From NCBI GenBank assembly GCA_963705525.1, contig CAVPJW010000004.1:448789-512788 (forward strand): a stretch of DNA of 64,000 bases, written 5' to 3'. The notes below the pieces were generated by a model. The model was not told the origin of the DNA, searched no databases, and was given only the letters and a program-made list of their open reading frames with translations. This stretch comes from an uncultured Acidobacteriota bacterium. Its GTDB lineage: Bacteria > Acidobacteriota > Vicinamibacteria > Vicinamibacterales > CAVPJW01. Position numbers and translations under genes: made by a program. How positions within the stretch are numbered: position 1 is the stretch's first letter; each line of letters begins with the position of its first letter. This document shows, in pieces, positions 4,866 through 58,706 of the stretch.

Positions 4866-7800
4866 ATGCGCACGCGCTCCGCACGCGGCGCTCTCGCGCC
4901 TTTGGCCGCTCCGCTGCTCGTCGGCCTGTTCCTGGTTTCGAGCGCCCAGGACGTCGGCGCGCAGACGCCGATCATTCCTTACTACGGGAAGAACCAGATT
5001 CACTACGACACGTTCGAGTGGTTCACCTATAAGACCGATCACTTCGAGATTTACTACTACCCCGAGATCGAGCAGCATCTGGAGCGCGTCGCGTCCTACG
5101 CGGAGAGCGCGTACCAGAAAGTCAGCGCCGACCTGAAGCACGACCTCGCGTTCAAGGTCCCGCTCGTCATCTTCAAGACGCACAGCGAGTTCGAACAGGA
5201 AAACATTATTCCGGGTGCGGCCCAGGAGGGCGTCGCCGCGTTTGCCGAACCCACGCGGTCGCGCATGGTGCTGCCGATCGACGAGCCGAGCGATCTCCTC
5301 TACGGCCTCATCGTCCACGAGCTGACGCACATCTTCGAGTTCGACATCATTCCGCAGGGCCTCATCCGACGCGGCGTCCCGCTCTGGATCAATGAAGGGT
5401 TGTCGGACTACGAGCGCGGAGACTGGCAGTCGAGCGACCTCACTACTGTACGCGATGCAGCTGTCGCTGACATCGTGCCGAAGATGAGCGAGCTCGAGGG
5501 TTACGGCGATTTCTCGAACCCCCGAATCATCTACAACCTGGGGCACGCGGTCTTCGAGTTCATCGAATCGCGCTGGGGCAAGGAAGGCATTCGCCAGTTC
5601 CTCTTTTCGCTCCGCAAGAGCGTCATCGGCGGGTCGGACGACGCGTACGAGGAAGCGCTCGGGCTGAAGCCCGACGAATTCGACCAGCAATTCGAAAAAT
5701 ATCTGAAGGACCGCTTCAAGCCGTTCCGCGACAAGGAACGGCCGGCCGACTACGGGCGCGATCTGGCGCCCAATCCGTCCAAGACGAAATATGTGAGCGT
5801 CATTTCGGTTGAGGCCTCGCCTTCCGGCGACCTCATTGCCGCGATGACCGGCAACCGCAAGGACCGGGAACTCGACATCGTTCTCCTGTCGGCGACGGAT
5901 GGATCGGTCGTGCGAAATCTGACCGAGGGGTTCGACAAGGATAAGGGCTTCGCCTACATCTCTTATCCTGCAGACCCGTCCCGCTTCAACGCGATGCCGT
6001 GGATGTCGTGGGCGCCGAACGGCGACCGGCTCGCCTATTTCGTGAGGACCGAGAAGGAAAAAACACTGATCGTCCAGAACGTGATCACGCGCAAGGTCGA
6101 AGAGCGCGTCGAGATGAAGCAGGTCGACGAGCCGGAGTCGCCGGATATCTCGCCCGACGGCCAGACCATCGCCTTCTCTGCGCTCAAGAATGGCATCAAC
6201 GACATCTACACCGTGAATCTCGCGACGCGCGAAATTACCAATCTCACGAGCGACGACTTCGCGGACTTCGCGCCCACCTATTCGCGAGATGGGAAGTACC
6301 TCATTTACGTGGCACGGATCAGCGGCAACCACAAGCTCTTCCGGTACGATCTCGATACCAAGAAAAAGACGCAGCTGACCTTTGGGACACACGACGATGG
6401 CGGCGCGCAGTTCATCGACGACTCGAGTATCGTCTTTCCGTCCACGGCGACGGATCCCACGGTTCCCATCACGCCGGAGATCGCGCGAAACGGCAACATC
6501 TACAACATCTGGACGCTCAACCTCACGACCGGCGCCCTCAATCAGTACACGGACACCATCGGCGCCAATGCCTCCCCGGTCGTGCTGTCCGGCGGCAAGA
6601 CGACGCGCATCGCGTTCGTGACGTATTACAAGGGCGAGTTCGGGCTCCACACGATTGAGCCGAAGGAACCCCTGCACTCGGTGGCCTCGGCCGACTTCGG
6701 GGCACCGGGCCCGATCATCGATTTTCAGGCGCCTCTCCAGCACACGATCGTGGCCGACAACAAAAAGAAGAAGGGCACCTTCGAGAAAATGTTCCTCGAC
6801 GGGCGCCCGCCCGTGGCCCTCGGCGTGACGAGCGGCGGCGACGTCTTCGGCGGCACGCAGATCTCCTTCAGCGATGTGCTGGGGGATCAGCAGTTCAACT
6901 TCTTTGCCGCGTCGGTGTCGCAGTATCGGACGCTGGCGTTCCAGTACGTCAACCTGGCCAAGCGCTTTCAGTGGGCCGGGCAGGCTTACTCGCAGACCCT
7001 CTTCTACTACGGGAACTACGGCGGCGTGTTCTACGACCCGGCCTACAGCGGCTTCATCGATCGCGATCTCGCGCTGGCGACGAGAACGGTCCGCGGCGGG
7101 AGTGTCGTCGGGAGCTATCCGTTCAACCGCTACGCCCGCGTCGAGCTCTCTACCGGCGTCTTCAATTTCGACGAGAGCTACAGCGATCCGGCGCTCGAAG
7201 AATTTTCACAGGACTACCAGGAATCGGTGTACGGAACACAGATCTTCCGGAACGGTACATTCGTGCCCTTCACGGCGGCATTCGTCCAGGAGACAACCGT
7301 CTTCCGCGAGTTCGGTCCGCTCGCCGGCAACACGGTGAGATTTGCCTACGAAGTCGCCCCCAAGATCGGCAACACGCTTTCCAAGCAGACGCTCGATCTC
7401 GACGCGCGGTATTACATGCGGATCGGCGGCTCGGGACTCCTGGCGACGCGATTCCGCGGATTCAAGAGCTGGGGCGACGCGCCGGACTTCCTGTTCTTCG
7501 GCGGCAACTCCGAGATGCATGGCTACGACTACCTGTCCTTCCTGGGCCAGAACGCGTTCTTCGCCGACGCTGAACTGCGCTTCCCGCTCGTCGAGGCGAT
7601 GCTGACGCCGATCGGCGTGCTGGGCGGCATTCGTGGGGTCTTCTTCTTCAACACGTCGCTCGCCGGCTTCGACGAACAGCCGTACAAATACTTCGAGAAC
7701 AAGGATCAGCTGTATACACCAGTCATCGGTTACTCGGTGGACCCGGTCACCGGCATACCGGCCGAGGTTTTCGGGCCGCCGACGACGATCTCCGGCTTCA

Positions 7801-7991
7801 GGCTTCAGGACGGACGCGCGTCATACGGGATCGGCCTCGAGACGTTCGCGTTGGGATTCCCCGTGCATTTCGACTGGGCGTGGCGCACGCTGTTCAACAA
7901 GCAATGGGAAGACGCGCTTTTTGCCTCGTCCGGAGGAAGCGCGGCGTTTCGGAACGTGCAGTTCCAGTTCTGGATCGGGTACGACTTCTAG
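4866..7991 (+). CDS. Outer-membrane fusion protein: HExxH metallopeptidase-like domain + PD40/TolB-like beta-propeller + Omp85/surface-antigen-like beta-barrel
   Basis: Signal peptide ending VGAQ. HELTH at nt 5316..5330. Repeated SPDG/APNGD/SRDGK propeller blades. C-terminal alternating aromatic strands ending ...FWIGYDF (terminal Phe typical of OMPs). GAGG lies 8 nt before the ATG at 4866. Confidence 0.88.
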   Translation: MRTRSARGALAPLAAPLLVGLFLVSSAQDVGAQTPIIPYYGKNQIHYDTFEWFTYKTDHFEIYYYPEIEQHLERVASYAESAYQKVSADLKHDLAFKVPLVIFKTHSEFEQENIIPGAAQEGVAAFAEPTRSRMVLPIDEPSDLLYGLIVHELTHIFEFDIIPQGLIRRGVPLWINEGLSDYERGDWQSSDLTTVRDAAVADIVPKMSELEGYGDFSNPRIIYNLGHAVFEFIESRWGKEGIRQFLFSLRKSVIGGSDDAYEEALGLKPDEFDQQFEKYLKDRFKPFRDKERPADYGRDLAPNPSKTKYVSVISVEASPSGDLIAAMTGNRKDRELDIVLLSATDGSVVRNLTEGFDKDKGFAYISYPADPSRFNAMPWMSWAPNGDRLAYFVRTEKEKTLIVQNVITRKVEERVEMKQVDEPESPDISPDGQTIAFSALKNGINDIYTVNLATREITNLTSDDFADFAPTYSRDGKYLIYVARISGNHKLFRYDLDTKKKTQLTFGTHDDGGAQFIDDSSIVFPSTATDPTVPITPEIARNGNIYNIWTLNLTTGALNQYTDTIGANASPVVLSGGKTTRIAFVTYYKGEFGLHTIEPKEPLHSVASADFGAPGPIIDFQAPLQHTIVADNKKKKGTFEKMFLDGRPPVALGVTSGGDVFGGTQISFSDVLGDQQFNFFAASVSQYRTLAFQYVNLAKRFQWAGQAYSQTLFYYGNYGGVFYDPAYSGFIDRDLALATRTVRGGSVVGSYPFNRYARVELSTGVFNFDESYSDPALEEFSQDYQESVYGTQIFRNGTFVPFTAAFVQETTVFREFGPLAGNTVRFAYEVAPKIGNTLSKQTLDLDARYYMRIGGSGLLATRFRGFKSWGDAPDFLFFGGNSEMHGYDYLSFLGQNAFFADAELRFPLVEAMLTPIGVLGGIRGVFFFNTSLAGFDEQPYKYFENKDQLYTPVIGYSVDPVTGIPAEVFGPPTTISGFRLQDGRASYGIGLETFALGFPVHFDWAWRTLFNKQWEDALFASSGGSAAFRNVQFQFWIGYDF

Positions 7992-8287: not shown

Positions 8288-8292
8288 ACCTT

Positions 8293-8371
8293 CGACCCGC
8301 GAACCACCGAACCGCCGAACCATCGGACTCTGGAACCTCGGAACCCTGGAACCTTGGGACCCTGGAACCCT
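8293..8371. repeat. Tandem degenerate 8-bp repeat (about 9-10 units, core GGAACC/CGAACC)
   Basis: CGAACCAC CGAACCGC CGAACCAT CGGACTCT GGAACCTC GGAACCCT GGAACCTT GGGACCCT GGAACCCT, read directly at 8300..8371. Intergenic. Confidence 0.85.
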
Positions 8372-8383
8372 TACAATCTCCCC

Positions 8384-8869
8384 ATGTCCCTGACGCCAAA
8401 GCGCGCTTCCGAATCGGCCACAGAAATGGTGCAGGTCGTGCTGCCGAACGATGCGAACCCCCTCGGGTTCATCCTCGGCGGCACCGTGATGCATCTCATC
8501 GACATCGCCGGCGCCATCGCCGCGCATCGACACACACGAACCCTGCTCGTTACGGCGGCCGTCGATGGCCTGCAGTTCCTGCATCCCATCAAGGTCGGCG
8601 ATCTGATCCTTCTGAAGTCGCGCGTCACGTGCACGTTCACCACGTCGCTCGAGGTCGAAGTGGACGTCTTCTGCGAGGAAACGCTGACGGGCGTGCGCCA
8701 GCTGACGAGCCACGCCTACCTGACGTTCGTCGCCATCTCGAAGGACGGCGAGCGGTTGAAGGTACCGCCACTGCTCGTTGAAACAGACGAGGAACGACAG
8801 CGCTGTGAAGAGGCGGGACGACGGCGGGCGGAGCGGTTGGAGAAGCGGGCGCCGCGAACGGACCGTTAG
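8384..8869 (+). CDS. Acyl-CoA thioesterase (hotdog fold, YciA-like)
   Basis: VLPNDANPLGFILGGTVMHLIDIAGAIAA motif block. Start MSLTPKR at 8384, because the ORF-track start at 8354 lies inside the tandem repeat. Confidence 0.9.
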   Translation: MSLTPKRASESATEMVQVVLPNDANPLGFILGGTVMHLIDIAGAIAAHRHTRTLLVTAAVDGLQFLHPIKVGDLILLKSRVTCTFTTSLEVEVDVFCEETLTGVRQLTSHAYLTFVAISKDGERLKVPPLLVETDEERQRCEEAGRRRAERLEKRAPRTDR

Positions 8870-15656: not shown

Positions 15657-18003
15657 TTAGAACGCCACCTGAAATCCCAGACGCACCGTCCGGGGGATCG
15701 TGGGATGCGTGTGAATGTCGTCCACGCCCTCGAGTGGTTCACCCTGCAGGCGTGACGCATAGAAGTAGTCGATGTCGCTGTCTTTGGCGTCGAACAGGTT
15801 GAAGATGTCGAGCGCCACGCGCACGCGGTCGGAAATGGCGTAGCCGATCTGGCCGTTCACAAGACTGGTGGCATCCGAGCGAACGCTGTTGTCCTCGATG
15901 AGCGGACGCGGGCCAAAATAGCGGAGCCGAACACTGCCGAATACCCGGTGCTGTTGATCGATCGACATGCCCGCCGAGACGACAGTGTCCACGGCGCCCG
16001 AAATGCGATCGCCGGCCGGGTCGTCGTCCGTGAAGCGGGCGTTCGACCATGCCGCATCAAGATCGAACGTCAGCCACGGCTTCAGACTCACGTAGTTGGT
16101 CCACTCGACACCCTTGCGACGGCTTGGCCTGCTCGCTTCGGTCGTGCCCGCGTCACCGACAAAGAGCAGCTCTGACTCGATGCCCAGGCCCCAGATGGCC
16201 ACGGTGCTCTGAACGTGGGGAATCGCGACTGTCCGGACGCCGATTTCCGCTCCGCGCGCCCGCGCGAGCGGCGTCACACGCTGGACCGGCTCGCCCGTTG
16301 TCGGATCCACGGTGATCGTGGCGCCGCGCGCATCGTTGCTGTGAAATCCGTATCCGCCGTTGACATAGACCTCCGTCTTTCGCCATGGACCAAACGCGAC
16401 GCCAAACTTCGGACTGACTAAACCCGCAGTGTCTTTGCCCGAGTTCAAGGCGTTGTCATTGTCAACCTTGAACCGATAGATGTCTCCCCGCAGGCCCACC
16501 TGCGTGCGCACTTTGGTCGACAACTCGATTTCGTTCTGCGCGTAGAACGCCACCGAGGTCTGCAGCACCGAATCCTCGCGGACGGTGGACAGGCGTCGGC
16601 GCGCGCTGGTCTTGTAAAGCCCGACATTCGAGATATCGTCGTTCCGGAGCTGCACACCAAACAGGTTTTCGACGCGACGTCCGGCCCATCGAGTTTGACG
16701 ACGATGTGACGCGCGGAAGCCGGCGACGAAACGCTTGTCGGCCTGTTCGAACTGGTCGCCGTCGACCGGGTTGTCGAGGAAGTACGTGAAGTTCGAAAAG
16801 AGGTTCAACTTGTAGGCGAGGCCGTATGCCGTCAGATGGGACACGCTGTTGGCCTGAGCACGCTGGTAGTCCGCGGAGACGCTGTAGCGGTAGGTGCTCC
16901 CGCCATCGCTGTTGTCGATGAAACCAAATCGGGAAATGACGGCGGACTGGATGGCGCGATCGGGCACCTGATCGGTTGAATTCCAGGTCCCGTGTACCCA
17001 TCCCGGTTACCGAAAAAGCGTTCCGCGAGTCCCCACGGCTGTAGCCGAGGACCGCATTCACCTTCTCGTAGTCGTCCGGGAGCTCCCACGGACCGTCGTT
17101 GTGATTGAGCTCGAGCGCATAGAGCAAGTGTCCCGACCCGACGGACGGTGAACCGGCCCCGAGAAACCTTCCCCAGCCTTCCCCGCCAAAGCTGGCGCGG
17201 ACGATATTCCCATCGAGCACGTTCGCGTAGTTGATGTTGGCCGATCCTGCCGCCGAGAAGTCGCCCTGCTCGGCGAAGTACGGACCCTTGTTGTACTGCA
17301 CGCCGCTCACGAGCTCGGGTATCAGGAAGTTGGCATCAGCATAGCCGTGGCCGTGCGCATGTGTGGGCATGTTGACCGGCACGCCTGCCACGAATGTCGA
17401 GAAGTCGGTGCCGTGGTCGAGATTGAACCCTCGCAGGTAGTACTGGTTCGCTTTCCCCTCGCCGCTGTGCTGGCTGATGATCATCCCTGGGACCGTCTCC
17501 AGCACTTCGCCGGCCCTCATGATCGGACGCGTGTCGAACTGCCTGGCGGTCACCGCACCTTCGCTCGCCGCGTTGGCCAGGCCGACCAGGTTCTCTTCCG
17601 GGTTTGGCAGTTCGGCGAGGTTCCTGAATGTCAGCTTCCCCGTCACCGTGACATCCGCGTGGAGCGCCAGGTGCAGGACGGCGTCCGCCGTGACGTTTTG
17701 ATCGGCCAGCGTGATGCCGCGCCGTGCACCAGCAAAGTTGATCAGATCGAATGTCAGCTCGTATTGACCGGGCTTCAGCGCCTGGAACGCATAGGCGCCC
17801 GCCTCGTTGGTGGTGGCGCTCACGCGAGATCCCGCGACCTTGTCCAATAACTCGACCATCACGCCCGGTAGTACGCCGCCCGTTTCGTCGGTCACCCGAC
17901 CGGCCAGACGCGCGCCCTGAGCGAGTGCACCTGAACACAGACCAAGGCACACGACCGTGGCGAACGCCGCAACCGCCGCAGTGCGATTCAAGGGACGGGG
18001 CAT
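15657..18003 (-). pseudogene. TonB-dependent receptor with N-terminal carboxypeptidase-regulatory-like domain, frame broken once near 16980-16990
   Basis: The 513-aa ORF carries the signal peptide, the CarbopepD_reg-like domain (GRVTDETGGVLPGVMVEL) and the plug. The 436-aa ORF carries the barrel ending ...VRLGFQVAF. The junction reads ...AFSVTGMGT / GTWNSTDQVPDRAIQ in two frames. Confidence 0.85.
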
Positions 18004-20238: not shown

Positions 20239-20258
20239 CCCGTGAGTCTCGTCATCAG

Positions 20259-20300
20259 CCCGAAGCCAGGAGTCAGGAGTCCGAAGCCGAGAGGCCGCGG
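20259..20300. repeat. Tandem degenerate 7-bp repeat (6 units)
   Basis: CCCGAAG CCAGGAG TCAGGAG TCCGAAG CCGAGAG GCCGCGG. Intercistronic. Confidence 0.8.
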
Positions 20301-20314
20301 ATCTCCAATTCTGG

Positions 20315-21775: not shown

Positions 21776-21834
21776 GTTGTTCAGAACGGAAATGGCACGG
21801 GGTTCAAAAGAACATCGCGCCGGGATTGGCTGCC

Positions 21835-21905
21835 AGTTTTAGTTGTCCGTTGTTCGTGTCACCAAAACTAAGAACTAAGAACCAAGAACTAAGAACTTCA
21901 GAAGC
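21835..21905. repeat. 7-bp tandem repeat arm (AAGAACT-type, 6 units) with a degenerate inverted arm
   Basis: AAAACTA AGAACTA AGAACCA AGAACTA AGAACTT CAGAAGC at 21864..21905, preceded by AGTTTTAGTTGTCCGTTGTTCGTG (partial reverse complement). Confidence 0.75.
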
Positions 21906-21906
21906 C

Positions 21907-26619: not shown

Positions 26620-26655
26620 TATACTGTAGCTCAGCGAACCGTTGAACCCTGAACG

Positions 26656-27315
26656 ATGAACCCTGAGCGCCCCCTTGACATCCTCAAATCGGCGGCGGCC
26701 GCCTTCCGGCGGCATGGTTATCACGGTTCGAGCGTCGGCAAGATCGCCGATGCGCTCGGCATGACGAAGGGCAGCCTCTACTATCACTTCAAAGACAAAG
26801 AGGCGATCCTGCTGGCCTGTCACACGTACTCGCTCGACGCGCTGCTCGCTCTCCTCGCCGACGTCGAGGACAGTTCAGCGCCGCCCGATGTGAAGCTCGA
26901 GCGGCTGGTCGCGGGGTTCGTGCACACGATTCTCGACGAGCTCCACGGCACGGCCCTGTTTCTCGACCTGGACGCACTCGGTCGACGCAACCTGCGACAG
27001 GTTGTCAAGCGTCGAGATCAGTTCGATCGCGGCATGAGGCGCGTCATCAGGGACGGCATTCGCCAGGGCGTGTTCGCGCCGGTCGATCCAAAGCTCGTCA
27101 GCTTCGCCATCCTTGGCGCGGTGAACTGGATCCCGCGCTGGTTCAAGCCGACCGGACGGGCCCACTCTGACGAGATCATCAGGACGTACAGCAGTTTCTT
27201 CATTCAGGGGCTTCGTTCCCGCAGCAAGGCCCCGAGGACTGTGGACAGAGGCCGACGCCGCCGACATCAGAAAGAGCGCCCTCGACGCCGGGTCGCAAAG
27301 CCTGGTGTACCATGA
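26656..27315 (+). CDS. TetR/AcrR family transcriptional regulator
   Basis: HTH block GYHGSSVGKIADALGMTKGSLYYHFKDKEAIL. Confidence 0.9.
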   Translation: MNPERPLDILKSAAAAFRRHGYHGSSVGKIADALGMTKGSLYYHFKDKEAILLACHTYSLDALLALLADVEDSSAPPDVKLERLVAGFVHTILDELHGTALFLDLDALGRRNLRQVVKRRDQFDRGMRRVIRDGIRQGVFAPVDPKLVSFAILGAVNWIPRWFKPTGRAHSDEIIRTYSSFFIQGLRSRSKAPRTVDRGRRRRHQKERPRRRVAKPGVP

Positions 27316-28951: not shown

Positions 28952-29948
28952 CGCTGACGGGATTCAGAAACGGCATCATCTGCCGCAGGCGGGCGCCGAC
29001 TTCCTCGATGAGCTGATCCTGTTCCTTCTGCCGGGTCGCCTTGAACCACGGACGCCCTTTCTCGTTCTCGGCCACCCACCGGCACGCGTACGTCCCGTTC
29101 TGAATCTCTTCGAGCATCTTCTTCATCTCGGCCCTGGTCTCGTTCGTGATCACGCGAGGCCCGCCGGTATAGTCCCCGTGCTCCGCGGTATCACTGACCG
29201 AGTACCGCATGTAATTCAAGCCGCCGCGATACATCAGATCGACGATGAGCTTGAGCTCGTGAAGACACTCGAAATAGGCAATCTCGGGCTGATACCCGGC
29301 CTCGACCAGCGTTTCAAATCCGGCCTTGATCAGGGCGCTGACGCCGCCGCAGAGGACCGCCTGCTCGCCGAACAAATCGGTCTCGGTCTCTTCCGCGAAC
29401 GTCGTTTCGAGCACGCCGGCTCGCGTGGCGCCGATGGCTTTCGCGTACGACAGCGCCAACGCCTTGGCCGATCCGGTCGCATCCTGGTGGACAGCGAGGA
29501 GCGACGGCGTGCCGCCACCCTCGACGAAGACTTCGCGCACGCGGTGTCCGGGCGCCTTGGGCGCAATCATCGCGACGTCCACGTCGGCGGGCGGCTGGAT
29601 GGTGCCGAACCTGATGTTGAACCCGTGCGCGAACATCAGCATCTTGCCGGCGGTGAGATGCGGGGCGATCGATTCCTTGTAGACGCGCGGCTGCGTCGTG
29701 TCGGGCACGAGCATCATGATCACGTCGGCCCACTTCGCGACGTCGGCGATCGAGCGGACTTCCAGCCCGGCGGCCTGCGCCTTTCCTCGAGATCGACTGC
29801 CCTCGTGCAGACCCACCTGCACGCTGACGCCGCTGTCCCTGAGATTCAAGGCGTGAGCATGTCCCTGCGAACCGTAGCCGATGACGGCCACGTGCTTCTT
29901 GCGAATGAGCGCGATGTCTGCGGAGTCGTCGTAGTAGATGGTGGCCAT
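28929..29948 (-). CDS. ilvC: Ketol-acid reductoisomerase
   Basis: [40 protein letters not shown]..., class I KARI. 339 aa. Confidence 0.96.
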
Positions 29949-29963
29949 GGGGAGATCCTCGCT

Positions 29964-30116
29964 AGGCTTCAGACTACGGGCTTCAGGCTACGGGCTACGG
30001 GTTTCAGGCTACAGGCTACAGGATCACGTTCCGCACAGGCGGGGCGGAACTCCCTTCAGGTGCCACGCTTCGAGAGCTCAAGCCCTGAAGCCGGGAGCCT
30101 GCAGCCCGGAGCCTAC
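29964..30116. repeat. Periodic inverted repeat: 9 heptads (AGGCTAC type) and 5 reverse-complement heptads about 55 bp away
   Basis: Left arm AGGCTTC AGACTAC GGGCTTC AGGCTAC GGGCTAC GGGTTTC AGGCTAC AGGCTAC AGGATCA. Right arm GCCCTGA AGCCGGG AGCCTGC AGCCCGG AGCCTAC. Lies between the ilvN stop and the ilvC start. Confidence 0.85.
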
Positions 30117-30679
30117 ACAGAATAAGAAATATTGTCTTCGTCTGACGCCGTCTCGGTGGTCGACGGGCCGACGGCGTCCGACACGGCCGAGCCGCGCGCC
30201 ATGGCGACACGCCCGGTGCGCGCCATCTCGATCACGCCGTACGGCAGCAGCATCTCCAGCATGCCGTCGATCTTGTCCTCGGATCCCGTGATCTCGATGA
30301 TGAGCGAATCGGTCGCCACGTCCACGACACGCGCGCGGAACACGTTGACGAGCTGCATGACGTGCGAGCGCGACTCAGCATTGGCGGCCACCTTGATCAT
30401 CGCAAGGTCCCTCACCACGCTCGGCTTCGTCGTCACATCATCGACGCGGAGAACGTTGACGAGCTTGTACAAATGGGCTTCAAGGCGTCGCGCGCCGCCC
30501 TCGTCGGTTTCGACGACGATAGTCATCCGCGACACGCCCGCGATCTCGGTGCGCCCGACCGTCAACGAGTCGATGTTGTACGCCCGCCGTCGAAAGAGCG
30601 ACGAGACCCGGTTCAAGACTCCGGGACGGTCCTCGACGAGCACGATGATCGTCCTCAGCATGAGTTGGCCTTCCTCCAA
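30113..30679 (-). CDS. ilvN: Acetolactate synthase small (regulatory) subunit
   Basis: ACT domain LRTIIVLVEDRPGVLNRVSSLFRRRAYNIDSLTVG. The start may be MLRT at 30661. Confidence 0.93.
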   Translation of the reverse strand: MEEGQLMLRTIIVLVEDRPGVLNRVSSLFRRRAYNIDSLTVGRTEIAGVSRMTIVVETDEGGARRLEAHLYKLVNVLRVDDVTTKPSVVRDLAMIKVAANAESRSHVMQLVNVFRARVVDVATDSLIIEITGSEDKIDGMLEMLLPYGVIEMARTGRVAMARGSAVSDAVGPSTTETASDEDNISYSV

Positions 30680-30683
30680 TCGG

Positions 30684-32405
30684 CTACACGTCCGCGCCCG
30701 TCTCGGCGAGCGGCGTCGGCGCGGGCCGGCGGATCATCTTGTCCAGATCGGCGCCGGCCGGCACCATCGGATACACCGAGTCCTCCTGCTCGACCTGAAA
30801 GTCGAGCACGACCGTGCCGGCATGTTCACGGGCGCGGAGGACGGCGGGCGCGACTTCGGCGCGCCGGGTGACGGCGGCGGCCGTCAGCCCGTAAGCCTCG
30901 GCCAGCTTGACGAAGTCAGGATTGACGAGCGGCGTCGCGGCGTACCGCTTCTCGTAGAAGAACTCCTGCCACTGCCGCACCATGCCGAGATAGCCGTTGT
31001 TGATGATGGCAATCTTGATGTCGATGTGTTCCTGGGCGATCGTCGCCAGCTCCGCCTGCGTCATCTGGAATCCGCCGTCGCCCGCGACGACCCACACCTC
31101 GGCTTCCGGCCGCGCGAATTTGGCGCCAATTGCCGCGGGGAGCGCGAATCCCATGGTGCCCAAACCGCCAGACGTGATCAACGAACGAGGCTCGTTGTGC
31201 TTGTAGTACTGGGCCTCCCACATCTGATGCTGACCCACGTCTGTCACCACGATGGCCGACCCCCCGGTCATGTGCCAGAGATCGTTGATCACGTGTGCCG
31301 CGTACAGGTGGCCGTTGTCCGGAAGGTTCTGAATGTCGCGAACGGCGGCATCCCCCTTCAGCTCGTCGAGGTATCCCAGCCAGTCGGATCGATCGCCGGC
31401 GGCGACGCGTGGGAGGATCGTTTCGAGGATTTCACGCAGGTCTCCGACGAGCCCGGCGTCCACCTTGACGTTCTTGCCGATCTCGGCGCCGTCGATATCG
31501 ATATGGAGCTTGCGCGCATTGAGTGCGTAGGTCTTGAGGTTCCCCGTGACGCGATCGTCGAACCGCATCCCGAAAGCCAGGAGGAGATCCGCCTCCTGAA
31601 TCGCCGTATTCACCCAGGCCTCGCCGTGCATGCCCATCATGCCGAGATTGAGCGGATGCGACGCCGGAATACCGCCGATGCCGAGCAGCGTCATCGCAAT
31701 GGGGATGTGCGTCTTTTCCGCGAACGCGCGAAGCACGTGCGACGCGCCCGACAGCATGACGCCGTGGCCGGCGAGGATGAGCGGACGCCTCGCCTGATGA
31801 ATCAGATCGAGCGCGGCGTCGAGCTCCGCCGGGCGCGGACGATGATCGGGTCGATAACCCGCCATGCGCGGCGCGGCGCTCTCCCAGTGAAACTCCGCCG
31901 ATGACTGCTGCGCGTCCTTGGTGATGTCGATGAGCACGGGACCCGGCCGGCCCGAGCTCGCCACGTAGAAGGCTTCCCGCACGGCCGGGGCCACATCCTC
32001 CGCACGCGTCACCAGATAGTTGTGCTTCGTGATGGGCAGCGTGATGCCGGTGATGTCGGTTTCCTGAAACGCGTCGGAGCCGATCAACTTGCTGCCGACC
32101 TGACCGGTGATGCACACAATCGGCGAGGAATCCATCATCGCCGTCGCGATGCCGGTTACCATGTTGGTCGCACCGGGCCCGGACGTGGCGATGGCGACAC
32201 CGACGCGTCCGCTCGCGCGCGCGTACCCGTCGGCCATGTGCGTCGCGCCCTGCTCGTGCCGCACGAGGACGTGATGAATCGGAAACTCGAGCATCGCGTC
32301 ATACGCGGGCAGAATGGCGCCGCCGGGATAGCCAAAAACGGTCGAGACCCCTTCCCGCACGAGCGATTCCCACAGGATCTGCGCGCCGGTTCTCTTCGCC
32401 ATCAT
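30684..32405 (-). CDS. ilvB: Acetolactate synthase large subunit
   Basis: ThDP enzyme blocks GYPGGAILP, GPGATN and GLGTMGFALPAAIGA...GDGGFQM. Start MMAKRTGAQ at 32405, because the longer ORF-track start translates the intergenic repeat. Confidence 0.95.
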   Translation of the reverse strand: MMAKRTGAQILWESLVREGVSTVFGYPGGAILPAYDAMLEFPIHHVLVRHEQGATHMADGYARASGRVGVAIATSGPGATNMVTGIATAMMDSSPIVCITGQVGSKLIGSDAFQETDITGITLPITKHNYLVTRAEDVAPAVREAFYVASSGRPGPVLIDITKDAQQSSAEFHWESAAPRMAGYRPDHRPRPAELDAALDLIHQARRPLILAGHGVMLSGASHVLRAFAEKTHIPIAMTLLGIGGIPASHPLNLGMMGMHGEAWVNTAIQEADLLLAFGMRFDDRVTGNLKTYALNARKLHIDIDGAEIGKNVKVDAGLVGDLREILETILPRVAAGDRSDWLGYLDELKGDAAVRDIQNLPDNGHLYAAHVINDLWHMTGGSAIVVTDVGQHQMWEAQYYKHNEPRSLITSGGLGTMGFALPAAIGAKFARPEAEVWVVAGDGGFQMTQAELATIAQEHIDIKIAIINNGYLGMVRQWQEFFYEKRYAATPLVNPDFVKLAEAYGLTAAAVTRRAEVAPAVLRAREHAGTVVLDFQVEQEDSVYPMVPAGADLDKMIRRPAPTPLAETGADV

Positions 32406-32419
32406 CAACCCCACACTCA

Positions 32420-32498
32420 GGTTCGAGGGTTCAAGGTTCGACGGTTCTACGGTTCCCAAAAGAACCCTGGAACTCTGGAACCATGGAACCCTTGAACA
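32420..32498. repeat. Periodic hairpin: five GGTTC octads, AAAA, five GAACC octads
   Basis: GGTTCGAG GGTTCAA GGTTCGAC GGTTCTAC GGTTCCC AAAA GAACCCTG GAACTCTG GAACCATG GAACCCTT GAAC. Lies between the ilvD stop and the ilvB start. Confidence 0.88.
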
Positions 32499-32501
32499 AT
32501 C

Positions 32502-34174
<1,673 letters not shown>

Positions 34175-34178
<4 letters not shown>

Positions 34179-35086
34179 GACAGCCGTCGTCCTTCCCCGT
34201 CGGTCGCATCGCTGGGCGGAGGTGCGCCTCCGGTTTCGGCCTTGGGTTCCACGACACCCTCGCGCTCCCTCCAGCTGGGATAGGAACCGAGCGTTCTGAG
34301 CGAGCGCGCAAATTCGGCGAGATGGACCAGGGCGCGCGCGCAGGTCAGATCTTCCCGGGCCGCCGAGACATCCACGTAGAAGTTGTACTCCCACGGGCGC
34401 CCGCGAATGGGCCGCGATTCGAGCTTCGTCAGGTCGATCCCTCTCAGCGCGAAAACGCTCAATGCCTTGAAGAGCGCGCCGGGCTCGTTCTTGCCAAGCT
34501 GAAAGACCACCGTCGTCTTGTCGGGATCGCCGAGAGGCACGGCCTTGCGCGCCACGATCAGGAATCGCGTGATGTTGTCGTCGTAGTCCTGGATGCCGGA
34601 CTTGAGGATCGACAGATCGAAGACCTCAGCGGCCCGTTCTGACGCGATGGCCGCCGCATCCTGCAAGTCCCCGTCGCGAATCATTTTCGCGCTGCCCGCC
34701 GTGTCGTACGTCGCGACCACTTCTCGATCGGGAAGCGTTCGGAGAAACTGTTCACACTGCGCAAGCGCCTGGGGGTGCGAGTAGATGCGGCGGATTCCCT
34801 CAATCCGCGATCCCGGATGCGCCAGCAGATGGTGGACGATGCGGTGCTCGACTTCGGCCACGATGGGCAGCTCGTGCTCGACCAGCAGGTCGTAGTTGTG
34901 ATGAATGCTGCCGCCGATGGAGTTCTCAATCGGGAGAATGCCGTGGGTGGCCTTGCCGCCCGCGACCGTCGCAAACACTTCCTCGAAGGTCTCGCAGGCC
35001 TTGAGGTCCACTCCCGGCTTGAACCTGAGCGCCGCCGCCTCGCTGTAGGCGCCTGGCTCACCTTGATACGCGATTCGCACGAACAC
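34175..35086 (-). CDS. pheA: Prephenate dehydratase with C-terminal ACT domain
   Basis: IAYQGEPGAYSE, TRFLIV and ESRP motifs. GTG start at 35086. Confidence 0.9.
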
Positions 35087-36669: not shown

Positions 36670-36753
36670 GAAGGGTCAGGCTCCGAGCGCACACATCTCA
36701 GGCTCAGGACAGAACGACCTTCGCGAGGCTGAGATCGCGATACGACCCGGCGG

Positions 36754-54099: not shown

Positions 54100-54102
54100 C
54101 GA

Positions 54103-54195
54103 AGTTCTTAGTGCTCAGTTCTTTGTGCTTAGGGTGCCAAAGAACGAAGCAATGAGCAGCGCACCAAGAACTGAGCACCAAGCACTAAGAACTAC
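54103..54195. repeat. Periodic hairpin of heptads between convergent genes
   Basis: AGTTCTT AGTGCTC AGTTCTT TGTGCTT AGGGTGC ... GCACCAA GAACTGA GCACCAA GCACTAA GAACTAC. The outer 13 bp, AGTTCTTAGTGCT / AGCACTAAGAACT, are perfectly complementary. Confidence 0.88.
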
Positions 54196-55043: not shown

Positions 55044-55051
55044 ATCAACTC

Positions 55052-55065
55052 CTGTCGATCGACAG
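55052..55065. promoter_or_regulatory. Perfect 14-bp palindrome abutting the hbd Shine-Dalgarno sequence
   Basis: CTGTCGATCGACAG. On the minus-strand mRNA it reads CTGTCGATCGACAGGAGTTGATATG, so the AGGAG overlaps the last 2 nt of the palindrome. Confidence 0.45.
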
Positions 55066-55172
55066 TTTCAGAGTTGAAGGGTTGAAGAGTTCTACAGTTA
55101 CAGACCGTAGAGAGTCCGATCTGAAACCCTGACTGAATCTTCAACTCTTTAGACTCTTGAGCTCTTCAACTT
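55064..55172. repeat. Periodic hairpin of octads (AGTTGAAG type and complement)
   Basis: AGTTTCAG AGTTGAAG GGTTGAAG AGTTCTAC AGTTACAG ... CTGAAACC CTGACTGA ATCTTCAA CTCTTTAGA CTCTTGAG CTCTTCAA CT. Lies between the thiolase stop and the hbd start. Confidence 0.85.
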
Positions 55173-56365
55173 TCACTTTTCGACATCGATGAGCGCCGCG
55201 ATTCCCTGTCCTCCGCCAATGCAGGCCGTGGCGATGCCACGACGCCTACCCCGCCGGCGAAGTTCGAGAAGCAGCGTCAGGATCAGACGCGTACCGGTCA
55301 TGCCGAGCGGGTGACCGAGCGCGATGGCGCCGCCGTTGACGTTCACCTTGTCGCGATCGAGGCCGAGCTCCTTCTCGACCGCGAGGTACTGCGCCGCAAA
55401 GGCCTCGTTGACCTCGATGAGATCGATGTCGTCGAGCGACAGCCCCGCGCGTTCCAGCAACCTTCGAGTGGCCGGCGCGGGACCCATACCCATTAGAGAC
55501 GGCTCGACGCCGACGACGGCCCAGCCGGTCAAGCGACCGAGCGGCTTCAGCCCTCGCCGTTCAACCGCCTTGGCGGACGCGAGCAGAAGCGCCGCGCCGC
55601 CATCGACGATGCCGCTGGCGTTGCCTGCGGTCACGCCGCCTTCCTTGGAAAATGCCGGCGGCAGCTTCGCGAGCGTCTCGAGGGTCGTGTCCGGGCGCAG
55701 ATGATCGTCCCGGGAAAATACGTCCACGCCTTTCCTGGTCTTGATCTCAACCGCGACGACCTCTTCGGCGAGCCGTCCTTCATTCCAGGCGCGCGCGGCG
55801 AGCTGCTGGCTCCGAAGCGCATAGCAGTCCTGCTCCTCGACGCGAGATGCCGTACTTCGCCGCGCAGTTCTCGGCGGTGCCCGCCATCGTGCAACCCGCA
55901 CTGCGTGTCGAGCAGACCCTCCCAGAGCGTGTCTTCGAGCTTGCCCTGTCCCAGCCGGAGGCCGCCCCGCAGTCCGCGAATGACGTGCGGCGCCTGACTC
56001 ATGCTCTCCATGCCGCCGGCGAGCACGATCTCCGCCTCGCCGAGCAGGATCATCTGTGCACCGCTCACCGCGGCTTGAATGCCCGATCCGCACAGCCGAT
56101 TCACCGTGAGGGCCGGCACCTCGATCGGCAGCCCCGCTTTGAGCGCGACATGACGGGCGCCGTAGAGGGCGTCGGGACTCGTCTGCAGGACGTTGCCGAA
56201 GACGACGTGATCGACCCATTCAGGCTCCACACCGGTCCGTGCGAGGGCGCCGCGCGAGGCGATGGCTCCCAGCTCGATCGCCGACACATCCTTGAGCGCG
56301 CCGACGTACGACGCCATCGGCGTCCTGGCGCCCCCCACGATGAACACATCCTGAGACATGGACAT
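55173..56365 (-). pseudogene. Acetyl-CoA C-acyltransferase (thiolase), two frameshifts (about 55839-55841 and 55888-55891)
   Basis: Three frames read MSMSQDVFIVGGARTPM...[10 protein letters not shown]...DTQCGL / [15 protein letters not shown] / [12 protein letters not shown]...[17 protein letters not shown]...CIGGGQGIA. Each junction is fixed by removing one base. Confidence 0.85.
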
Positions 56366-56393
56366 GGCTCCCTTGCTTCCGCCTTCCGATGGA

Positions 56394-57463
56394 TCAGCCT
56401 GCCGTCTTCCGGGCGTCCCGAATCGACCTGGCGATGCCGTCGCCCGTTTCGGTCGTGCCGAGACGGCCGCCGGCGTCGGCCGTGACACGGCCAGACAGCA
56501 CAGCGTCCTTGACAGCGTGCTCGACCGCCGCGGCTTCCGTTCCGAGGCCAAGGAACTCCAGCATCAGAGCCGCCGACAGGATGGCGCCAATCGGATTCGC
56601 CACGTTCTTGCCGGCAAACTTCGGCGCCGATCCGTGCACGGGCTCGAACATCGACGTGCGTCCCGGATGCAGGTTGCCGGACGCCGCCATGCCCAGCCCG
56701 CCCTGAAGCGGCGCGCCCAGATCCGTGATGATGTCGCCGAACAGATTGTTCGTGACGATGACCTCGAACTGCGACGGGATCCTTCACCAGGAACATCGCA
56801 AGCGCGTCGATGTAGACGTGCGTCGCGGCGATGTCCGGATACTCGGCTGACACTTCCTTGAACACGCGCTGCCAGAGCGCGTGGCCCTGCGGCCATGGCG
56901 TTGCTCTTGTCGGCCATGCACACCTTGCGTCGGCCCGTCTGTCGCGCGAACTCGAAGGCGTGCCGGACGATGCGATGCACACCCTTGTAGGTGTTCACCT
57001 CTTCCTGGATCGCGATCTCGTCGTCGGTTCCCGCCTTGAAGCGGCCGCCGATGCCGACATAGAGGCCCTCGGTGTTCTCGCGGAACACGACGAAGTTGAC
57101 GTCCTCGGGGCGCGCGACCCTTGAGCGGACACAGGCGCTCGTCGAGCAGGCGCACGGGACGGTAGTTGACGTACAGATCGAGCTCGAAGCGCGTGCCGAG
57201 CAGGATGTCGCGCGCGTGCCGCTTGTCGGGCACGCGCGGATCGCCGAGCGCGCCGATGAAGATCGCGTCGAATTCGTCGCGCAGCATGGCGTAGCCGTTG
57301 GGCGGCAGCGTGATGCCGGTCTGCAGGTAGTGGTCCGCGCCCACGGCAGCAAGTCGAGATCGAACGAGCGGCCGAACACGTCGCCGACGGCCCGGAGGAC
57401 CTTGACGGCTTCCGCCGTGACGTCCTTGCCGATCCCGTCACCGGGGATGACGGCGATTCGCAT
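56394..57463 (-). pseudogene. Tartrate dehydrogenase / 3-isopropylmalate dehydrogenase family enzyme, four frameshifts
   Basis: Segments [15 protein letters not shown]...LLPW / GADHYLQTG...CPLKGRAP / [16 protein letters not shown]...DKSNAM / GHALWQRVF...LVKDP / [19 protein letters not shown]...[19 protein letters not shown] lie in alternating frames. Junctions are near 57344, 57108, 56888 and 56775. Confidence 0.85.
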
Positions 57464-57500
57464 GATTAGTCGGCCGTACGAAACATCACGCCTTGAACCG

Positions 57501-58706
57501 TCAGACACGCTCGATCGCCAGCGCCATGCCCATCCCGCCGCTGACGCAGAGCGTCGCGAGCCCGCGACGCGCTGACGCCGCTCGAGCTCGTGCAGGAGCG
57601 TGACGACGATGCGGGCGCCGGTGCAGCCGATCGGATGGCCGAGCGCGATGGCGCCGCCGTTCACGTTCAGCCGCTCGGGCGCAATCGGCACGTCGCGGAG
57701 CACCGCGAGCACCTGCGGTGCAAACGCTTCGTTCAGCTCGACCAGATCGAAGTCGTCGAGGCCGAGCTGCGATCGCTCGAACAGCTTTCGCATCGCCGGC
57801 ACAGGACCGATCCCCATGATGCGCGGGTCGACGCCGGCGCTCGCCCAGCCAAGAATGCGCGCGCGCGGCGTCAGCCCGCGCGCGACCGCCGCGCTGCGGC
57901 TCGCCAGAACGACCGCCGCGCCGCCGTCGGTGATGCCCGAGGACGATCCCCGCCGTGATGATGCCGGGCTGTCCCTCGACATCGCCGAAGACGGGCGGAA
58001 GCTTCCGCAGGCTCTCGATCGTCGTATCGGGCCGCGGGTGCTCGTCGCGCTCCACCACGGTCGGCCTGCCCTTGGCGTCGGCGACCGTGACCGGCGCGAT
58101 CTCGCGGGCGAATCGACCCTCCGCGGCTGCGCGAGCCGCACGCCGCTGACTCTCGAGCGCATACGCATCGGACTCCTCGCGCGTGATGCCGTATTGACGC
58201 GCCAGCACCTCGGCGGTCTCGCCCATGATCAGTCCGGACAGCGGACAGTGGAATCCGTCGCGGTACATCGCGTCCACGAGCGGGAAGTTGCCCATCCGTG
58301 GCCCCACCGCGCGTCCTCGGAATCGAGCAGATACGGCATGCGGCTCATCGACTCGATGCCGCCGGCCAGCACGAATGTCGATTCGCCCAGCTGGATCTGT
58401 TGAGCGCCTGACACGATCGCCTGCAGGCTCGACGCGCAGGCCTTGTTGATCGTCTGGGCAGGAACCGAGACTGGAATGCCGGCGCGATGACCGACCTGCC
58501 GCGCGGGATTGGGACCGGAGCCCGCCTGGCGCCCGTGACCAATCAGAATGTCGTCGAGATCGGTCTCCCTCGAGGCGGGATCGCTCGAGAGCGGCCCGCG
58601 CCGCCACCGCGCCGAGCTCGGCGGGATGGACCGCGCGAAAGGCGCCGCCATATCGCCCGATCGGCGTTCGAGCAGCGCCCAGGATCACGACCTCAGGATG
58701 TGCCAT
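57501..58706 (-). pseudogene. Acetyl-CoA C-acyltransferase (thiolase), four frameshifts
   Basis: Segments MAHPEVVILGAARTPIGRYGG...AALERS / DPASRETDLDDILIG...INKACASSLQA...DARWG / PRMGNFPLVD...GIITAG / [11 protein letters not shown]...[17 protein letters not shown]...LHELERR / [23 protein letters not shown]. Junctions are near 58585, 58303, 57945 and 57573. Confidence 0.85.

Follow-up and report, generated by a model that had tools for sequence, protein, structure and literature searches.

Introduction

Opposed arrays of tandemly repeated heptamers or octamers have been tabulated in bacterial intergenic spacers. In Xanthomonas campestris, arrays of 4 x GGGAATC form inverted pairs with 21-67 nt between them in atpA-atpG, atpD-atpC, groES-groEL, gltB-gltD and pepA-holC; the arrays, set a few nucleotides off the upstream stop and 13-24 nt short of the following gene, are under-represented between divergent genes, had no detectable regulatory role, and show conserved positions with variable length and sequence between X. 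campestris pv. campestris and X. axonopodis pv. citri (Rehm et al. 2015, PMC4692102). Geobacter metallireducens has pairs of sites on opposite strands, each made of 3-5 tandem 7-9-nt units, in spacers such as proB-proA; classes 1-3 (units GTTGCTYN, TCTCCGTS[Y] and MTYCTGA; 24, 21 and 8 pairs) are called "predicted global regulator binding sites", the binding of integration host factor (IHF) or HU being a guess of the authors and a prediction only (Aklujkar et al. 2009, PMC2700814). Here we analyse an element of this layout in the ilvD-ilvB spacer of an uncultured Acidobacteriota bacterium of the order Vicinamibacterales (positions 32420-32498 of a 64,000-nt stretch of contig CAVPJW010000004.1, hereafter the window), together with its relatives in the window and in other genomes.

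Three further kinds of element are relevant. Heptamers are the most abundant long simple-sequence repeats (5-11-nt units) in many bacteria, and slippage has been proposed as their source (Mrazek et al. 2007, as cited in PMC4679880 and PMC4692102); TAACTGA repeats lie directly upstream of start codons in Beggiatoaceae, cyanobacteria and Bacteroidetes (MacGregor 2015, PMC4679880). A repetitive extragenic palindrome (REP) is one imperfect palindrome, 20-40 nt in length, that follows a conserved consensus, bears a GTAG/CGTC tag and is linked to REP-associated tyrosine transposases (RAYTs). The 23S intervening sequence of Coxiella is an inverted-repeat stem that is cut by RNase III and carries an S23p open reading frame (ORF); 3-4 tandem GACAGAT heptamers, strain-variable in number, stand at the 5' side of its stem (PMC4990558).

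The ilvD-ilvB element

The element fills the ilvD-ilvB spacer apart from about 15 nt before the ilvB start (Table 1). All five GGTTC units predicted there at a spacing of 7-8 bp were located, with starts at 32420, 32428, 32435, 32443 and 32451 (steps of 8, 7, 8 and 8). The opposite arm had been described as AAAA followed by five GAACC units; five units 8 apart do follow a CCAAAA loop (GAACC at 32462, GAACT at 32470, GAACC at 32478 and 32486, GAACA at 32494), but of these five cores no more than three are exact, and the other two each depart by one base. A GGGG stretch resembling a ribosome-binding site precedes the ilvB start and stays outside the hairpin. An ILVD_EDD Pfam match on the orthologue at locus L083, the closest relative obtained, backs the ilvD assignment, and the window ilvB is nearest to metagenome-assembled Vicinamibacterales (78-79% amino-acid identity). 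The ORF of ilvD is long (listed start 34394); the true start is probably the ATG near 34178, which overlaps the stop of the prephenate dehydratase gene (34175-35086) in an ATGA junction.

Period and placement in the window

The original prediction took the element as one of an intergenic class with a 7-8-bp period and asked for an autocorrelation scan. Run on the window (lag autocorrelation, at least 68% self-match over 28 nt, with dinucleotide-preserving shuffles as control), the scan found five arrays of period 8 against 0.03 expected and two of period 7 against 0.17. Apart from periods 7 and 8 and the doubled periods 14 and 16, none rises above the shuffles (4-6 and 9-13 are at background), and every match is non-coding. 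The class is real: period-specific, confined to non-coding DNA, often two-armed and mostly placed between co-directional genes. Of about 22 co-directional or convergent spacers that measure at least 40 nt, seven hold an element; of six divergent regions none does, leaving out a weak mini-array at a TetR-family gene. The elements run from the stop codon of the gene upstream almost to the following ribosome-binding site; stretches resembling such sites, and start codons, fall outside the arms. The host operons are ilv, enoyl-CoA hydratase/aldehyde dehydrogenase/3-hydroxyacyl-CoA dehydrogenase, thiolase/3-hydroxyacyl-CoA dehydrogenase, E2/E3 and anti-sigma/thioesterase.

Tandem Repeats Finder gave a period-8 array at each arm of the ilvD-ilvB element and a period-7 or period-8 array at every other position that had been proposed, and sequence inspection agreed, with 20259 and 36695 as marginal cases. 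The weaker relative suspected at 26634 is a four-unit GAACC mini-array at the start codon of the TetR-family gene. Inverted array pairs stand at 32420, 29964, 54103 and 55064, and a weak one at 21835.

Several familiar element types were tried and set aside. A period of 7-8 nt without spacers rules out a CRISPR array, which has 24-48-nt repeats and unique spacers of similar size, as had been foreseen. Miniature inverted-repeat transposable elements (MITEs) were ruled out, no duplicated flank being found at any element end, and so were REPs and REP doublets (REPINs), on consensus: the window families share only the period, and their arms are tandem arrays. The GTAG tag occurs in the window elements only inside the GGCT-family unit, and no RAYT (Y1 transposase) turned up among the window proteins scanned. 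Intrinsic terminators were rejected because no element has a site with a T-tail. Rfam, where no match had been anticipated, gave none at gathering score in the 64 kb and none at the elements at E <= 1. The same search found no tRNA, riboswitch or leader at gathering score in the 64 kb, the upstream regions of the ilv genes included.

Unit families recur at several spacers

It had been argued that the unit differs at almost every locus and that the elements are therefore not copies of one another. This does not hold. In 64 kb of genome the GAACC family is present at three loci (8293, 26637 and 32420), the AAGAACT family at two (21866 and 54103-54193) and the GGCTNNR family at two or three (29964/30084, 20259 and about 36695), and family members share flanking sequence. 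A 40-nt alignment joins the 8293 element to the 32420 element and takes in the terminal GGAACCCTT(GA)ACAATCTC (score 49 against 14.6 +/- 2.4 for shuffled sequence), and the 3' end of the former, GGAACCCTTACAATCTC, is homologous to the end of the latter. In opposite orientation, the 29964 and 20259 elements have GGAGATCC[T/G]CG in common, after which come five variant units, identically ordered (local alignment score 36 against 16 +/- 2.4 for shuffles); their common 11-mer is found exactly at only those two window sites.

The pattern extends to other genomes. Mean best-rotation identity of units is 0.68 within a genome and 0.60 between genomes (permutation p < 0.0005), and 20% of unit pairs within a genome match at 6 or more of 7 positions, compared with 6.6% between genomes, figures that are uncorrected for base composition. 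At each of the loci L084, L085 and L028 one unit family is reused at several spacers. Because copies of one family share non-repeat flanks, we conclude that the elements are copied from spacer to spacer and did not arise separately in each.

Across the units of 63 arrays (window and L001-L085), CTGA/TCAG occurs 16 times against 4.9 expected, GAAG/CTTC 11 times against 3.3 and GGCT/AGCC 13 times against 4.5, and CpG-containing words are depleted. Stop-codon content is raised (40 of 63 against 31 expected); the rise is mild, and an argument from it was dropped.

Distribution in other genomes and turnover at orthologous spacers

The outside sample comprised 80 ilvB loci, one genome per species, in 710 kb, and arrays of at least three copies were counted. 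Acidobacteriota-labelled DNA (544 kb, the window included) holds 47 arrays of period 7 and 14 of period 8, with no other period above 12; in 230 kb from other phyla there are six of period 7. Inverted-complement array pairs within 120 nt number 24 in all, many of them directly after the ilvB stop or before the start of ilvB, ilvN or ilvC. Element density is about 1 per 9 kb in the Acidobacteriota and Chloroflexota DNA examined, and almost every intercistronic spacer of L085 and L087 holds an element.

The proposed comparison of orthologous spacers came out positive, in that period 7-8 is kept with a different unit or the same unit family is kept with a different copy number, with the qualification that the elements are labile and many orthologous spacers are empty. 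In the ilvD-ilvB spacer, period-8 arrays are built from GGTTC in the window, from CACGAAGN in L083 and from ACGACGAC in L002; L004 has 130 nt without a period, and L006-8, L081 and L082 have only 4-40 nt and no array. Look-ups of the exact ilvB and ilvC proteins returned no match, and a metagenome scan with a degenerate ilvD C-terminus pattern yielded only two distant loci, whose spacers are short and array-free. The ilvB-ilvN spacer is about 22 nt long in the window (or 4 nt when counted to the TTG with which the listed ORF starts) and 16 nt in L083; in L084 it is 132 nt, with (CAGATTT) x 7 followed by (AATCTGC) x 4. The ilvN-ilvC spacer carries the GGCTNNR family in all three, as about 4+8 units in the window, 4+6 in L084 and 2+2 in L083, and the coding DNA of the three is 73-83% identical. 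Elements thus appear, vanish and are replaced at orthologous junctions.

Contigs with an identical neighbouring protein differ by whole units. Arm lengths are 83, 91, 107 or 131 nt (steps of 8) in one set, 34 or 20 nt (2 x 7) in another and 20 or 27 nt (1 x 7) in a third, and in arm pairs of this kind one arm changes and the other is fixed. These polymorphisms were observed at loci of related lineages, not at those of the window itself. Arrays gain and lose whole units, as replication slippage would make them do, and their two arms change independently.

Some further observations concern how arrays begin and how far they extend. In three genomes (window 30113-30125 on the minus strand, L083 5013-5030, L084 1068-1085) the ilvN stop codon falls in register with the first unit, from which it differs by a single substitution (GTGTAGG for CTGCAGG); arrays may be seeded from the stop-codon heptamer or expand up to it. 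In the Acidobacteriaceae ilvB-ilvN spacers of L080, L061, L056 and L067 (about 5790-5840), the right-arm units CTAGAGG/CTAGAAG resemble a tandem form of the native ribosome-binding-site region (AGAGG/GAAAGG) of array-free relatives. The 10-kb ilv-leu locus of L085 has an array in nearly every spacer; leuC-leuD is filled by about 27 direct CACTGYT units (7618-7842, period 7/14), the opposite arm being short and decayed. The short metagenome contigs of L084 (2909-2935) and L085 (1-60) end inside arrays whose unit recurs elsewhere on the same contig. Contig ends fall inside arrays in 2 of 38 cases against a background of 0.6% (p = 0.02), which is consistent with the arrays breaking assemblies and lends weak support to their being multicopy.

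Folding of the arms

Folding energies were compared with those of shuffled sequences, as the original prediction had proposed. The element at 32405-32501 folds at -43.9 kcal/mol on the plus strand (z -5.4) and at -35.6 kcal/mol on the sense, minus strand (z -2.05), its sense RNA being 8 kcal/mol weaker than the antisense. The expected excess stability is strong at this element and at 54100-54194 (z about -5 on both strands), moderate at 55044-55175 (z -2.8 / -2.4) and 29964-30113 (z -1.7 / -2.7) and weak at 21776-21906 (z -1.6 / +0.6); it is absent from the direct-only arrays at 8288-8384 (z +1.3) and 20239-20314 (z -0.5).

A role for these structures as stem-loops on the mRNA had also been suggested; the data do not support it. 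Stems that are kept because they serve the transcript should favour the sense strand through G-U-compatible mismatches, yet of the 17 two-arm elements whose orientation is known, about 6 fold better as the sense strand and about 11 as the antisense strand. There is no T-tail at any element, many orthologous spacers are empty, and the arms are often unbalanced (8 vs 4, 6 vs 11 or 4 vs 27 units). We found no sign of selection on an mRNA hairpin. Most arms pair about equally well in several registers, and the idea that they are exact mirror copies left by a recent inverted duplication was dropped on that ground.

PF05635 genes between opposed arrays

In two of the first 85 loci a small ORF lies between two inverted arrays (L085 4091-4450 and L069 1803-2189). 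Both ORFs belong to Pfam PF05635/TIGR02436, "four helix bundle protein", and match PDB 2GSC (Xanthomonas XCC0516). The ORFs of 23S-rRNA intervening sequences belong to this family, which is reported to be homologous to the Avd proteins of diversity-generating retroelements. Its prototype XCC0516 itself adjoins such an array beside bccP: Rehm et al. list 4 x GGGAATC, their repeat number 15, in the bccP-XCC0516 spacer, where it overlaps the annotated XCC0516 start (PMC4692102).

Homologues were then fetched by protein identity alone, not by arrays, which brought the cassette loci to L069 and L085-L146. Inverted arrays bracket the PF05635 gene in all four contexts obtained (ilvC-leuA, cas6-cas4, thiolase-3-hydroxyacyl-CoA dehydrogenase and ilvB-ilvN), and in every one the gene is co-oriented with the host operon. 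In the first three contexts the arms read 5'-(GTRGTCNN)n ... (NNGACYAC)n-3'; in the ilvB-ilvN context, from Terracidiphilus-like acidobacteria, they read (CAGAGMT)n ... (AKCTCTG)n. Arm complementarity around the ORFs ranges from 18/18 to 37/43. The window spacer between thiolase and 3-hydroxyacyl-CoA dehydrogenase holds an ORF-less two-arm element, and the same kind of junction holds the cassette in the Anaerolineae-labelled loci L097-L116.

L087 is a CRISPR-associated operon with arrays at 500-597, 1437-1487, 1868-1960, 2605-2714 and 2741-2804. Octamer arrays of GACCAC/GTGGTC, alternating in orientation, bracket each of cas6, the PF05635 gene and cas4 and fill ORF-less spacers as well; a second array, (CGATAYG) x 9, stands before cas1.

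Other features of the window

The coordinates of the ilvD-ilvB element and of the other window elements are collected in Table 1. The 20259 array, a partial copy of the 29964 element, sits between an aldehyde dehydrogenase stop and a 3-hydroxyacyl-CoA dehydrogenase start, and the 21835 element between an enoyl-CoA hydratase stop and an aldehyde dehydrogenase start. In the ilvN-ilvC element the arms lie at 29964-30022 (8.4 units) and 30084-30115 (4.4 units) around a centre of about 61 nt.

Table 1. Tandem-array elements of the window and the genes flanking the ilvD-ilvB element
Feature	Positions	Strand	Description
Direct-only array, period 8	8293..8376	+	About 10 GAACC-type units; spacer between anti-sigma zf-HC2 gene and 4HBT thioesterase gene
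Short period-7 array	20259..20306	-	GGCTTCG GACTCCT GACTCCT GGCTTCG (minus strand), with flank GGAGATCCGCG
Two-arm element	21835..21900	.	Right arm strong, (AAGAACT) x 4.6; left arm decayed
Mini-array	26637..26665	+	4 GAAC(C) units over start codon of TetR-family gene; weak GAACC-family member
Two-arm period-7 element	29949..30115	.	GGCTNNR family; ilvN-ilvC spacer
ilvB (acetolactate synthase, large subunit)	30684..32405	-	ATG 32402/32405, about 15 nt past left arm
Left arm, ilvD-ilvB element	32420..32455	.	5 x GGTTC, unit GGTTCNN[N]; Tandem Repeats Finder period 8, 4.6 copies, 82% match
Loop, ilvD-ilvB element	32456..32461	.	CCAAAA; the hairpin loop in the plus-strand fold
Right arm, ilvD-ilvB element	32462..32498	.	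5 GAACC-like cores at spacing 8, then ACAATCTC, common to the 8293 element
ilvD (dihydroxy-acid dehydratase)	32502..34178	-	Stop 32502-32504, 3 nt from right arm
Weak remnant hairpin	36695..36735	.	GGCTCAG type; between 2-oxoacid dehydrogenase E2 and E3 genes
Two-arm element, period 7/14	54103..54193	.	AGTTCTT/AGTGCTC vs AAGAACT/GAGCACC; exactly between two convergent stop codons
Two-arm period-8 element	55064..55175	.	GTTGAAGA / TCTTCAAC; fills spacer from thiolase stop to 3-hydroxyacyl-CoA dehydrogenase start

The exact 11-mer ATCTCCCCATG occurs at 8376-8386 (+) and 29946-29956 (-), where it precedes and includes two start codons; the genes are unrelated (4HBT thioesterase and ilvC), both lie directly 3' of arrays, and these arrays are of different unit families. 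The 4HBT thioesterase gene has no purine-rich ribosome-binding site. The window has a G+C content of about 64% and encodes a TonB-dependent receptor with a CarboxypepD_reg domain; with the affinity of its ilvB, these traits point to an acidobacterium. Split genes lie at 15657-18003 (-) and 55173-58706 (-): N-terminal domains of the TonB-dependent receptor are in ORF 16462-18003, which is overlapped by the long ORF 15657-16967, and pieces of thiolase and of isopropylmalate/isocitrate dehydrogenase are fused or split over three overlapping ORFs. Such split frames suggest indel errors of a long-read assembly, or pseudogenes.

Origin and meaning of the elements

We propose, with a probability of roughly 0.5, that the window hairpins are ORF-less, intervening-sequence-like insertions between cistrons, selfish or neutral, that are copied between spacers. 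The ilvD-ilvB element and about eight window relatives would then be ORF-less members of a widespread intercistronic "inverted tandem-repeat" class, each with two microsatellite-like arrays, opposed in orientation and built of a 7-8-nt unit, that reach from a stop codon to near a ribosome-binding site. They may be miniature or decayed relatives of the PF05635 cassettes, or may have been spread by the same copying process. On the polycistronic RNA the arms would pair, folding the insert out and bringing the stop and the next start close together, and by analogy with rRNA intervening sequences the stem would be a likely substrate of RNase III. The elements would be tolerated passengers with at most REP-like side effects on mRNA, and not dedicated regulators. 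A bolder version, which we regard as doubtful, unites the hairpins, the heptamer microsatellites and the rRNA intervening sequences in one family of selfish intercistronic cassettes, whose parental form carries an Avd-like PF05635 gene and whose ORF-less hairpins are its miniature derivatives; the PF05635 protein may then bind the units, or act together with reverse transcriptase or RNase III in copying or processing the element.

A number of observations weigh against the proposal. Neither a transposase nor a target-site duplication nor a second defined terminus was found. The flanks shared between elements are short (8-11 nt) and were picked out after the alignments had been seen; the hub motif ATCTCC, with three occurrences near elements against 0.9 expected, is not enriched alone (it was tried as a shared terminal motif and dropped as not significant by itself, only the longer flanks being so), and the within-genome likeness of units is subject to the compositional reservation made above. 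The ilvN-ilvC unit family is kept across about 75-80% nucleotide identity, maybe by constraint rather than neutrality. The ilvD-ilvB hairpin consists of successive 5-bp helices broken by internal loops and is not a long perfect duplex. As to PF05635, the 64-kb window has no such gene and is linked to the cassettes by shared architecture and lineage, not by sequence homology; in L087 the ordinary genes cas6 and cas4, and not the PF05635 gene alone, are bracketed by opposed arrays.

Slippage in place might make such elements with neither copying nor function: a 7-8-nt stretch of the spacer would expand, and the complementary arm would arise via template switching. Purely local microsatellites of this kind would account for the whole-unit length polymorphism, the copy-number differences at orthologous arrays, the ilvN stop codon that in three genomes is a near-unit in phase, and the likeness of the Acidobacteriaceae units CTAGAGG/CTAGAAG to the native ribosome-binding-site region; the L084 unit TAGATTG/CAGATTT likewise resembles the window's empty-site sequence, TAGCCGATTG, and the literature attributes heptamer long repeats to polymerase slippage. 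We nevertheless consider this origin unlikely, given that a unit family recurs at several spacers per genome, with shared flanks and the same order of variant units, and that one octamer family (GTRGTCNN) brackets PF05635 in three operons of different genomes. The arrays might instead be phased binding sites for a protein (IHF/HU-like, cold-shock, S1 or CsrA-type, or the PF05635 protein itself), the favoured units reflecting the binder of each genome. The 4-5-nt core (GAACC, GGCT) is conserved and the 2-3-nt spacers vary even in the direct-only array, which has no pairing to account for it; unit vocabulary is genome-specific, the cross-genome excess of CTGA, GAAG and GGCT echoes the published TAACTGA and MTYCTGA, and similar proposals are in the literature. 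Yet several unrelated unit families share one 64-kb window, pristine arrays are uniform over the entire unit, at orthologous junctions one unit replaces another or the element is gone and no compensation is seen, a 7-8-bp period puts neighbouring sites on different faces of the duplex, and no binder was identified, so that binding arrays look quite improbable to us.

Selected RNA elements, which would stabilise, process or terminate the polycistronic mRNA in REP-like fashion or as dedicated RNase III sites, would explain the placement between cistrons with the ribosome-binding site left free, the strong predicted stems at 32420 and 54103, the persistence of an array at ilvN-ilvC in three genomes, and the Terracidiphilus-like arms around PF05635, which stay complementary while protein identity falls from 100% to 75%. 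Set against this are the more frequent advantage of the antisense strand, to which the ilvD-ilvB element itself conforms, the lack of T-tails, the unstructured direct-only arrays, the unbalanced arms with their several pairing registers and the many orthologous spacers that have no element; we judge such selection very improbable. Least credible of all are classical REP/REPIN or MITE families moved by a RAYT-type or other transposase. The elements are indeed extragenic hairpins of 80-150 nt, each genome has several families, their presence at orthologous sites is patchy, GTAG recurs every 7 nt in the GGCT family, and insertion sequences lie at a fixed distance from the Geobacter sites; but a conserved full-length consensus is lacking, as are a terminal inverted repeat with target-site duplication and, in both window and loci, a transposase, and the arms, unlike REPs, are internally tandem.

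Whatever their origin, the elements add very stable hairpins to operons of central metabolism (ilv, leu, atp-type junctions, beta-oxidation); they are common, break assemblies and are missing from Rfam and from annotation pipelines. The dominance of heptamers among long bacterial microsatellites has been a question since 2007, and the origin of the rRNA intervening sequence and its S23p ORF is also unsettled. If the PF05635 link is true, it offers one testable model for both, and a context for TIGR02436, a very large "four helix bundle" family with no assigned role; if it is false, the repeat class is still extended to new phyla, with a turnover by whole-unit slippage and copying between loci.

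Comparison with known systems

The original prediction did not recognise a described element type. This has to be revised: the architecture is tabulated for Xanthomonas and Geobacter, and heptamer-rich repeats were noted in 2007. It is thus already published, unnamed and unexplained, and the element type belongs to a known, poorly understood kind. No paper in the literature searched joins Acidobacteria to these repeats, and none but the Coxiella paper links PF05635 to tandem-repeat arms.

Like the Xanthomonas and Geobacter pairs, the present elements are opposed arrays tens of nucleotides apart, intergenic, near stop codons and rare between divergent genes. The GGGAATC heptamers of Xanthomonas, and the GGGGAYT heptamers of Nostoc, are similarly intergenic, form inverted pairs inside operons and are rare between divergent genes; Xanthomonas differs in having one dominant G-rich unit, read as a G-quadruplex former, whereas the window has several families that are not G-rich, and period 8 as well. 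The Geobacter pairs also place two opposed arrays of 7-9-nt units in spacers, and their unit CTCCTGA is the sense-strand unit of the 20259 element, but their centres are longer (about 75-115 nt between start points) and the phylum is another.

With long simple-sequence repeats the elements share tandem units beyond chance, a non-coding bias, heptamer dominance and whole-unit change of length, and with these and the short tandemly repeated repetitive (STRR) heptamers of cyanobacteria a patchy phylogeny; the surveys, to the extent that the papers citing them relate their content, deal with direct arrays only, without inverted pairing, families with shared flanks or an enclosed gene. CTGA, over-represented here, is the core of both the Beggiatoaceae TAACTGA and the Geobacter MTYCTGA units, and L003 and L012 carry TAACTGA-like units; TAACTGA arrays, unlike the present elements, are almost always direct (one inverted set in 170) and have a single unit sequence. 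REPs, bacterial interspersed mosaic elements (BIMEs) and REPINs are likewise palindromes outside genes, found where the neighbours are co-directional or convergent; a genome holds several families of them, their sites are labile and they may affect mRNA stability, as the present elements may also do; unlike REPs, these have arms that are tandem arrays and no consensus past the unit and a short flank.

The rRNA intervening sequences of Coxiella, Leptospira and others resemble the cassettes of L069 and L085-L146, which combine an inverted-repeat stem with a PF05635 ORF and have arms of tandem units. The former lie in rRNA helices, where the RNase III cut is known, whereas the latter lie in mRNA spacers and the window elements are ORF-less. 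As far as the literature searched shows, what appears to be new is the abundance and unit diversity of the arrays in Acidobacteriota and Chloroflexota, the flanks shared between spacers, the strain-level polymorphism of whole units and the systematic bracketing of PF05635 genes by opposed arrays.

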